Below, one piece after another: positions 28,762-30,101 of a stretch of DNA of 64,000 nucleotides (its first letter is position 1; every line of letters begins with the position of its first letter). Below the pieces are notes generated by a model, which was given only the letters and a program-made list of their open reading frames with translations, had not been told where the DNA came from and did no database searches. The DNA is from Escherichia phage vB_EcoM_IME537. The translations under genes and the position numbers were made by a program. Location: sequence record NC_054921.1, one strand, 5' to 3'.

Positions 28762-29541
28762 TTAATTAAAAATATACACTTCATCAGTTCCATTCTTTTC
28801 TTTGGAATGATATATGTTAAAGACGTATTTTTTATTAAGATGCTTAACATTGTATTTTTTAGACCATTCTTTAAGAAGAGTGTTTTCCTTTCCGTGATGC
28901 TCTAAAACATTCGACAGTCCAAATTTTATTCCTCTGTCATTTAAAGAGTCCAAAAGATTTAAAAGGTCTTTTTCTTCTTCTTCTGACCAAAATTTATTAT
29001 AATCAGCAACTGTTATAAGATACGGAGGATCTACATATACAAAATCGCCGTCTAGAATTTTGACATCTTTAAAATGCAATGAACTAAAGATTATTTTATC
29101 ACAATTTTGTTTAAAGTGATTAAAGCGTTTTTCACTATTTTTGTTTATAGTTCTTTTTCCAAACGGAGTAGTAAAATTTCCTTTATCGTTTATACGAATC
29201 ATATTACTAAACCCGTGAAAATGAAGAACATAAAGTAAAAGAGGATCTCTAGTTTTATTATAATCTTCACGTAATTTCAAAAACTCTTCTTTTGATGTTT
29301 TTGATAGTTTGTATTGCTTTATTACTTTTAATACGTCATCCCATGATATATCAATAAGACATTTATACATTTCAATAATTGGTGTTTGAATATCATTGGC
29401 CAATACAGGACCATTGACATTCAAGGACACTGATAAACCTCCACAAAATAAATCCACGAATCTGTCATATTTTGGAAAATGAGGCTTAAGTTCAGGTAAT
29501 AATGATTGTTTATTACCTGTATACGCGATAGCTCCTAGCAT
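28762..29541 (-). CDS. dam: DNA adenine methyltransferase Dam (GATC)
   Basis: 259 aa; [15 protein letters not shown].. N-terminus, FxGxG SAM motif (DLFCGGLS) and DPPY catalytic motif; matches T4 Dam from memory. Confidence 0.95.
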
Positions 29542-30101
29542 TATATTCTCTCATTTATTGCAGCAAAAAACGAATTATATAATTCTTCATCATATGTATT
29601 TGATAGTAATACTAACACGTTTTGTGATTTAGCATATTCATTAAACCTTGCTTGGATGGTTGGATTATCAGTAAATGATTCTCTTTTTGTCCATTTATTA
29701 CGTGGATAATATCCGCATGGCAAAAAATCTAATATCATCAATGACACAGGGTTTTCAGTTTTTGTGTATTCTTTTAATTTCTCTTTATCTTCTAAATATA
29801 TTCCAACCGAATCAATAGCTGTACCTCCACCAACTTGGTGTTTAATTTCAATTATATGCTTTTTACCGTTGCGAGAAATAACAATATCAAATCTTCTAGT
29901 ACGCTTCTTAGTTATAAAATTAGAACAAAACAAATTATTTGATTTTTCAGTATCATCGGTTAAAACCATTTTTTCTTGATAACTAACTGAACAATCAGTG
30001 AAATATTCTTTTACTTTATTAAGTATGAAATTTTCAACTACGGCAGATATTTTATATGAATCTCCGTTTAAAGCCATTTCATGCACAATTTTATTAATCA
30101 T
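29541..30101 (-). CDS. Hypothetical protein with PD-(D/E)xK nuclease-like motif, translationally coupled to dam
   Basis: 186 aa; ..[21 protein letters not shown].. fits D-x(n)-E-x-K; stop overlaps dam start (TAATG); AT-rich. Confidence 0.45.

Follow-up and report, generated by a model that had tools for sequence, protein, structure and literature searches.

A 64,000-nucleotide stretch of the genome of Escherichia phage vB_EcoM_IME537 (NC_054921.1), hereafter the window, is a segment of a Tequatrovirus (T4-type) genome, on whose minus strand the genes run in the order sp, 61.2, 61.1, gene 61 (30389-31417), ORF186, dam, an HNH endonuclease gene (28052-28702) and gene 56. Here we analyse ORF186 (29541-30101, minus strand), an open reading frame (ORF) of 186 aa with an ATG start and a TAA stop, which belongs to PHROG 8706 and is annotated as 'hypothetical protein' in GenBank. 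The adjoining dam gene (28762-29541, minus strand) encodes a 259-aa Dam-family N6-adenine methyltransferase (PHROG 56) and shares 95% nucleotide identity with the start of the T4 dam gene, whose product is annotated as GATC-specific in the T4 record. An earlier reading of the window from its letters alone (the original prediction) had noted, without giving a strand, a 186-aa ORF whose stop overlaps the dam start. The overlap is real and lies on the minus strand, where the TAA of ORF186 (29543-29541) and the ATG of dam (29541-29539) have one base in common in a TAATG junction (29539-29543); in full, the junction reads AATGAGAGAATATAATGCTAGG.

The two genes are also alike in base composition. 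The GC content of ORF186 is 27.6% and that of dam 28.7%, whereas the window as a whole has 34.8% and genes 61 and 56 on either side have 34-39%, indicating that ORF186 and dam have a common composition distinct from their surroundings, in line with the AT-richness noticed before. A Shine-Dalgarno-like sequence read from the minus strand, GAGGATGA (GAGGA), lies at 30106-30113, 4 nt before the ATG of ORF186, and a consensus scan found a T4-early-type promoter-like site, GTTTAC-N17-TATTAT, further upstream (30127-30155, minus strand). A scan of the minus strand found no terminator-like site between the ORF186 start and dam. The early promoter that the original prediction had assigned to both genes is a match to consensus only, of a kind no commoner around ORF186 than in shuffled sequences.

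ORF186 is no chance ORF, since it matches PHROG 8706 (function unknown) from end to end (E = 6e-116), occurs intact in about 150 phage genomes and, compared with five Tequatrovirus genomes, shows 19 synonymous and 3 non-synonymous codon changes. The gene is under strong purifying selection. A tblastn search with ORF186 matched 187 phage records, 153 of which cover at least 80% of the protein. Of 504 records from sequenced relatives of the T4 type, 145-153 (about 30%) carry the conserved gene. All annotated matches among the 40 matches listed are 'hypothetical protein', and no description, name or characterisation of the gene was found in the literature searched, with GenBank and PHROG 8706 giving no function either. 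The family is small: a family profile retrieved 11 proteins among 1.84 billion cluster representatives (HMMER, E <= 0.001), and scans of IMG/VR and JGI metagenomes added just five loci, of which three are near-identical to the window and two resemble KPV15. Wherever flanking genes tell, the sources are T4-like phages, and tblastn against plasmids gave no match at E <= 10.

An AlphaFold2 model of ORF186, built with seven homologs, has an alpha-beta-beta-beta-alpha-beta core (predicted local distance difference test score, pLDDT, 79; predicted template modelling score, pTM, 0.79). DSSP assigns to it helix 15-33, strands 38-47, 67-77 (beta2) and 80-88 (beta3) and helices at 95-113, followed in the C-terminal part by strand 119-124, helix 147-160, strand 163-167 and helix 172-185. 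In a Foldseek search with this model, MunI had the highest template modelling (TM) score (0.59/0.56) and EcoRI ranked seventh; MunI, an orthodox small restriction endonuclease (REase) of 202 aa, is the top structural match by a clear margin, covering 143 of the 186 residues of ORF186. Furthermore, an independent BFVD model of the homolog in phage MX01 (64% identical) superposes on the ORF186 model with a TM-score of 0.93.

The residues expected of a nuclease are conserved. In a family alignment of nine members, which ranges from 63% down to 29% identity, includes Klebsiella phage KPV15 and two distant metagenomic proteins and is shallow (effective number of sequences, Neff, 2.65), four putative catalytic residues (E23, D72, E85 and K87) do not vary among the nine homologs, and neither do 19 further positions, the latter being V39, Q42, S54, R69, I73, I75, H82, H88, Q89, G93-T-A-I-D-S98, L109, P118, S120 and D125. 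The putative catalytic block FD72-x12-E85-I-K87 (29841-29888, minus strand) lies on beta2 and beta3 of the model, and hhalign pairs its D72, E85 and K87 with D83, E98 and K100 of MunI. The D-x(n)-E-I-K peptide quoted in the original prediction is present, with minus-strand codons GAT (D72, 29886-29888), GAA (E85, 29847-29849) and AAA (K87, 29841-29843) read in the sequence. The invariant E23 (codon 30033-30035, minus strand), on the first long helix, is a candidate additional metal ligand, while the loop and helix start after the ExK motif, G91-S98 'GGGTAIDS' (29808-29831, minus strand), with its invariant G93-S98, is a candidate DNA-recognition element. This element aligns with GGSKLNE of MboI at equal spacing from the ExK-type motif and resembles GNAIER of EcoRI and GNAHER of MunI. 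With the core fold in the model and with both the acidic residue on beta2 and the (D/E)-x-K on beta3 conserved, ORF186 is predicted to have the PD-(D/E)xK restriction-endonuclease fold that had been suspected from the signature, and the invariance of D, E and K reaches down to homologs of 29% identity. Profile searches gave ORF186 no match at a curated threshold; HMMER against PDB sequences, with ORF186 alone and with the family profile, returned nothing at E <= 10, and an NCBIfam search returned noise only.

An ORF186 homolog lies directly upstream of a Dam gene in 8/8 distinct lineages (the window, T2, KPV15 and the loci that we label L003, L004, L007, L098 and L099). The junctions between ORF186 stop and dam start range from a 13-nt gap to a 35-nt overlap: 1 nt is common to both genes in this phage and in L003, the genes abut in L004-L006 and overlap by 4 nt in L007, 7 nt in KPV15 (Jiaodavirus), 20 nt in L099 and 35 nt in L098, and the 13-nt gap of T2 results from a frameshift. 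The pair occupies at least three genomic neighbourhoods. Tequatrovirus and L003/L004 have it downstream of gene 61, with gene 56 next in Tequatrovirus, and in KPV15 it follows rIIB and an endonuclease gene. In L099 the pair lies upstream of an ORF of 756 aa (726 aa as called), which we take to be rIIA-like from its likeness to the N-terminus of T4 rIIA. Across the lineages, the identities of ORF186 and Dam to the window copies fall in parallel (100/100, 99/98.5, 63/71, 57/73, 50/65, 44/63, 38/57 and 39/54%). The constant linkage, the differing neighbourhoods and the parallel fall in identity indicate that ORF186 and dam act as one module, in the manner of restriction-modification (R-M) pairs, in which a nuclease gene adjoins and is co-inherited with a methyltransferase gene. 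The adjacency first noticed at a single junction thus holds in all eight lineages, and the ORF186 family is an obligate partner of Dam in T4-like phages.

These data bear on the possibility that ORF186 has a nuclease fold and another job, as a non-specific or structure-specific DNase or RNase or as a catalytically active effector unrelated to methylation, its adjacency to dam reflecting early co-expression only. Such a job would suit the strong structural neighbours of ORF186 that are not restriction enzymes (Can2/Card1, NucC, McrC and Bax1), as well as the profile searches, with their lack of a match at a curated threshold or to any PDB sequence. However, chance adjacency fails to explain the linkage in 8/8 lineages, the three neighbourhoods, the co-divergence and the overlapping stop and start codons. 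Moreover, MunI at the top of the structural matches is an orthodox REase of like size, and the family has none of the sensor domains that Can2, NucC and McrC effectors need. We therefore regard a job unconnected with Dam as unlikely.

A hint at specificity comes from the MboI/DpnII enzymes, which cut unmethylated GATC, are blocked by Dam-type methylation (N6-methyladenine, m6A), and, in the case of DpnII-type enzymes, are natural partners of Dam-like GATC methylases. In a Pfam search, DpnII (PF04556) ranked first (E = 0.0045 for ORF186 and 8e-5 for the best member, with 4/9 members matching), RE_BanI being a close second; the alignment places ORF186 residues 28-113 on profile positions 152-235 of 278. 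PADLOC likewise ranked REase_II PDLC03548 first (E = 9e-5; best member 5e-6), a model that is of the MboI/DpnII type, as R.MboI matches it at 3e-90 (the R.MboI query is 100% identical to the Moraxella bovis database entry). When family alignments were compared by hhalign, ORF186 57-105 aligned with MboI 171-219 (E = 0.0084, at a probability of just 5%). In the reciprocal direction, 120/120 MboI homologs, which are mutually close and hence not independent tests, scored 5.6-11.9 bits (median 8), compared to a median of -0.3 and a 99th percentile of 5.6 for composition-matched shuffles. Three methods agree on the alignment register, in which FD72-x12-E85-I-K87 of ORF186 stands opposite FD186-x12-E199-T-N201-YYNSGGSKLNE of MboI, giving the common spacing FD-x12-E-x-[K/N]-x4-GG[T/S]. 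Because this weak sequence signal and the genomic context agree, we take GATC specificity as the leading hypothesis, and ORF186 is probably aimed at unmethylated GATC.

Other observations concern GATC and the relatives of these proteins. A second, shorter PADLOC REase_II model, PDLC03569 (length 205), matches MboI over residues 101-265 (E = 3e-31) and gives a weak match to one member of the ORF186 family (E = 0.004), which hints that short bacterial MboI-like restriction enzymes exist that have no N-terminal region. The bacterial proteins most closely related to T-even Dam (about 40% identity) belong mostly to type IIS-like systems, with a second methylase and an endonuclease of the AlwI family or with a FokI C-terminal domain, and not to DpnII-type cassettes. 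None of ten plasmid loci with Dam homologs that were checked for a DpnII partner has one (six carry AlwI-type and two FokI-type enzymes, and two have no annotated REase), nor are the neighbours DpnII-like at 80 bacterial and archaeal Dam-homolog loci. In the 64-kb window, GATC occurs 68 times versus 212 expected from a second-order Markov model (observed/expected 0.32, z about -9.9), making it the most under-represented of the 136 strand-symmetrised tetranucleotides; the depletion is at the 4-mer level, GATC-core 6-mers being as frequent as their 5-mers predict. The sites near the locus are at 28018, 29028 and 29244, with none in ORF186 and two in dam. This depletion could reflect pressure from a GATC-reading nuclease, of the phage or of the host, or Dam-site avoidance, which has been reported for enterobacterial phages.

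A nuclease linked to Dam might also depend on methylation or be directed by it instead of being blocked by it, either like DpnI, cutting Dam-marked G6mATC in cytosine DNA, or like MutH, nicking hemimethylated GATC; Dam would in that case make the target and not guard against the nuclease. The strict Dam linkage is equally compatible with any nuclease that reads methylation, no 4-mer of the phage window is more depleted than GATC, and the host chromosome would be an obvious target, for host DNA is Dam-methylated and contains cytosine while phage DNA contains glucosylated hydroxymethylcytosine (hmC). DpnI, however, carries a winged-helix methyl-reader domain beside its catalytic domain, whereas ORF186 is a single-domain protein of 186 aa that has neither a winged helix nor another methyl-reader domain. 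In addition, its sole profile similarity is to MboI/DpnII, enzymes that m6A blocks, and the phage DNA is itself Dam-methylated, so that a second layer of protection would be needed. We consider a modification-dependent enzyme improbable.

The original prediction knew of no described equivalent of the gene at this position in T4, which proved correct, and a deletion explains it. The interval between gene 61 and dam is 847 bp in the window and 309 bp in T4; T4 is collinear with the window on both sides at 95% identity, and blastn of the T4 interval shows that it lacks a 539-bp segment (29626-30164, +/-3 nt, with ATC microhomology at the junction) that holds the promoter-like site, the ribosome-binding site and codons 1-158 of ORF186. 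T4 retains the last 28 codons, frameshifted (the remnant found by tblastn is aa 159-179), with a 1-nt deletion in a T-run that is common to T2, where the frameshift yields a 181-aa protein ending 13 nt before dam. We considered whether the 28-codon remnant could be a pre-existing dam leader and rejected this, as its residues, which make up the last strand and helix of the fold, are conserved in homologs of 41-50% identity. In KarlGJung (Bas37), ORF186 carries an internal deletion that differs from that of T4, and other records have split ORFs (G29, ERS-1) or short remnants. The gene is thus ancestral in the group, dispensable and lost several times while dam stays, so that dam looks like an orphan in T4; such an asymmetry is to be expected if the restriction gene of an R-M pair goes before the modification gene.

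The T4 junction coincides with an annotated feature of T4. T4 record X01416.1 marks a potential early promoter, P(E)17.40, upstream of dam at 613-641 (about 29608-29636 of the window), at the deletion junction, and coordinate arithmetic places its -35 box at or across the 539-bp junction. The deletion may have created or repositioned the T4 dam promoter.

On the other side of dam, the HNH-type homing endonuclease gene (28052-28702, minus strand; 216 aa, PHROG 655, E = 3e-60) lies between dam and gene 56. The same gap is just about 60 bp in T4, T2 and five other Tequatroviruses. T4 has segF instead, at the far side of gene 56; the dam-56 region is a hot spot of mobile endonucleases. Antisense between gene 61 and ORF186 lies a 66-aa hydrophobic ORF (30192-30392, plus strand) that matches PHROG 2024 (unknown function; E = 8.5e-31). 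Its ribosome-binding site, AAGGAGG, is strong, and its stop and the end of gene 61 overlap by 4 nt. At the DNA level this ORF is 95% conserved in T4, and AF158101 annotates nothing in that interval. Measured against FJ1, HY03, PhiZZ30, SG1 and HP3, comparisons that all take the window as reference and are not independent, nucleotide divergence of ORF186 is 0.82%, whereas dam differs by 2.5%, gene 61 by 3.5% and the 66-aa ORF by 3.9%, so that ORF186 is 3-4 times less diverged among carriers than the neighbouring genes. In phage ZN18 (L102), ORF186 is identical at all bases and dam differs at 17 positions. The low divergence suggests either that one allele spread laterally not long ago or that constraint is unusually strong.

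In such a setting, ORF186 could be a free-standing and perhaps decaying PD-(D/E)xK homing endonuclease that spreads among T-even genomes by cutting those without the gene, dam being a mere neighbour. The hot spot (HNH between dam and 56 here, segF beside 56 in T4), the patchy presence of the full gene (about 150 of about 500 related genomes) and a divergence of 0.8% versus 2.5-3.5% for dam and gene 61, as after a recent lateral sweep, all fit this proposal. A homing gene, however, would keep its target site and not a particular neighbour, and ORF186 stays upstream of dam in three neighbourhoods at 29-63% identity, co-diverging with Dam. Its absences from T4 and KarlGJung are two different internal deletions that left fragments, and neither a clean empty site nor fidelity to a target site was seen; besides, the best structural matches are orthodox type II REases. 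We give a homing origin little credence. It is very unlikely that ORF186 is a relic without activity, or that it regulates dam by binding DNA and has kept the fold but given up catalysis, as might be thought from its repeated truncation or deletion with no obvious harm (the T2 frameshift, the T4 and KarlGJung deletions and the split ORFs of G29 and ERS-1), given four putative catalytic residues and 19 others that are invariant over deep divergence and strong purifying selection (19 synonymous versus 3 non-synonymous changes).

We hold with moderate confidence that ORF186 is a type II-like PD-(D/E)xK nuclease that forms an R-M-like module with Dam and probably cuts unmethylated GATC. As we picture it, ORF186 would be a compact single-domain PD-(D/E)xK nuclease, closest in structure to MunI/EcoRI, which would be made early together with Dam from one transcript by coupled translation, the module moving and diverging as one in phages of the T4 type. 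Probably as a homodimer, the nuclease would bind Mg2+ via E23, D72, E85 and K87 and would cut unmethylated GATC or a closely related site that Dam can protect. Phage DNA would be protected by Dam methylation, in addition to glucosylation of hmC and strong depletion of GATC, and under-methylated foreign or competitor DNA in the infected cell would be cut. Of the three functions that the original prediction had offered, that of a methylation-sensitive nuclease partnered with Dam agrees best with the data, that of a remnant mobile endonuclease agrees poorly, and an anti-defence factor found no direct support.

Several points weigh against this interpretation. The score of ORF186 against PF04556 (16.8 bits) is below the gathering cut-off of 23, the hhalign probability for MboI is 5%, and the likeness to MboI/DpnII spans only about 50-85 residues around the active site. 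ORF186 has 186 aa versus about 280 in MboI and does not have the N-terminal half of about 140 residues, and hence not the full architecture of PF04556; MboI has N201 where ORF186 has K87; and the AlphaFold2 model of MboI (pLDDT 56) is too poor for a comparison of folds. The genes run R-M with a single methylase, where the DpnII cassette has M-M-R, and at 80 bacterial and archaeal loci with Dam homologs there is no ORF186-like neighbour (best E = 0.068), so that no bacterial R-M ancestor was found. The hosts are Dam+ and host DNA would therefore be no substrate, leaving under-methylated DNAs in the infected cell as the likely substrates. T2, T4 and other phages thrive with a truncated or deleted gene, so any benefit must be conditional. 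Finally, the fold and the linkage to dam are shown, and the nuclease activity, its GATC specificity, its block by methylation and its biological target are inferred.

A broader proposal, which we put forward tentatively, is that T-even Dam was ancestrally the protective half of a phage GATC R-M module, in which ORF186 would act during infection against under-methylated rival DNA (such as co-infecting phages, plasmids or dam-less relatives) or as a selfish addiction cassette. On this proposal, laboratory T4 would be a deletion mutant and T2 would carry a C-terminally frameshifted allele, which would explain why the R-M system escaped notice. Dam of T2 and T4, the classic 'orphan' phage methyltransferase, has been studied for decades as a stand-alone enzyme. 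The presence of ORF186 makes the purpose of phage Dam testable, by asking whether the need for dam is confined to phages that have the nuclease and what that nuclease cuts. With an active nuclease, these phages would be a rare case of virulent, hypermodified phages with their own restriction system, and ORF186 would be a minimal REase of 186 aa, possibly GATC-specific, from a family that has no Pfam model; both phage-phage competition and enzyme discovery would be served.

As a kind, then, the system is a known one, a type II R-M-like pair, in an unusual setting and with a family that is itself uncharacterised. Among EcoRI-like type IIP enzymes (MunI, PDB 1D02; EcoRI, PDB 1ERI), MunI (202 aa) is close in size to ORF186 (186 aa) and is its nearest structural neighbour, with a matching catalytic register (D72/E85/K87 in ORF186 versus D83/E98/K100). 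EIKHQ...GTAIDS of ORF186 also resembles EAKHQ...GNAIER of EcoRI and EIKRQ...GNAHER of MunI, a likeness that is not statistically significant alone (the EcoRI and MunI sequences compared are identical to the PDB chains except for D83A in 1D02). There is no significant sequence similarity to either enzyme (hhalign E = 0.0026 and probability 11% for MunI, E = 0.13 for EcoRI), and the loop from ExK to the G-x-A motif has 5 residues in ORF186 versus 15 in MunI and 26 in EcoRI. At the putative recognition positions ORF186 has T94, D97 and S98 in place of N, E and R in MunI/EcoRI, so that AATT specificity is not expected, and its partner methylase is of the Dam type (GATC) and not like M.MunI or M.EcoRI.

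With MboI and DpnII, ORF186 shares, in predicted models, the succession of secondary structures that follows the first core helix and, with DpnII, a position beside a Dam/DpnM-type methylase gene; it differs from both in being phage-borne, in virulent phages with hmC DNA. A parallel for that setting is the R.CviAI/M.CviAI pair (GATC) of a chlorella virus, a virus-encoded type II R-M pair in which a lytic virus has a restriction-type nuclease together with the adenine methylase that matches it. Chlorella viruses infect hosts of a different domain, whose DNA is unmethylated and degraded, whereas the hosts here are Dam+. The two arrangements are alike in that viral DNA is protected, which leaves other DNA of the infected cell as the presumed target.

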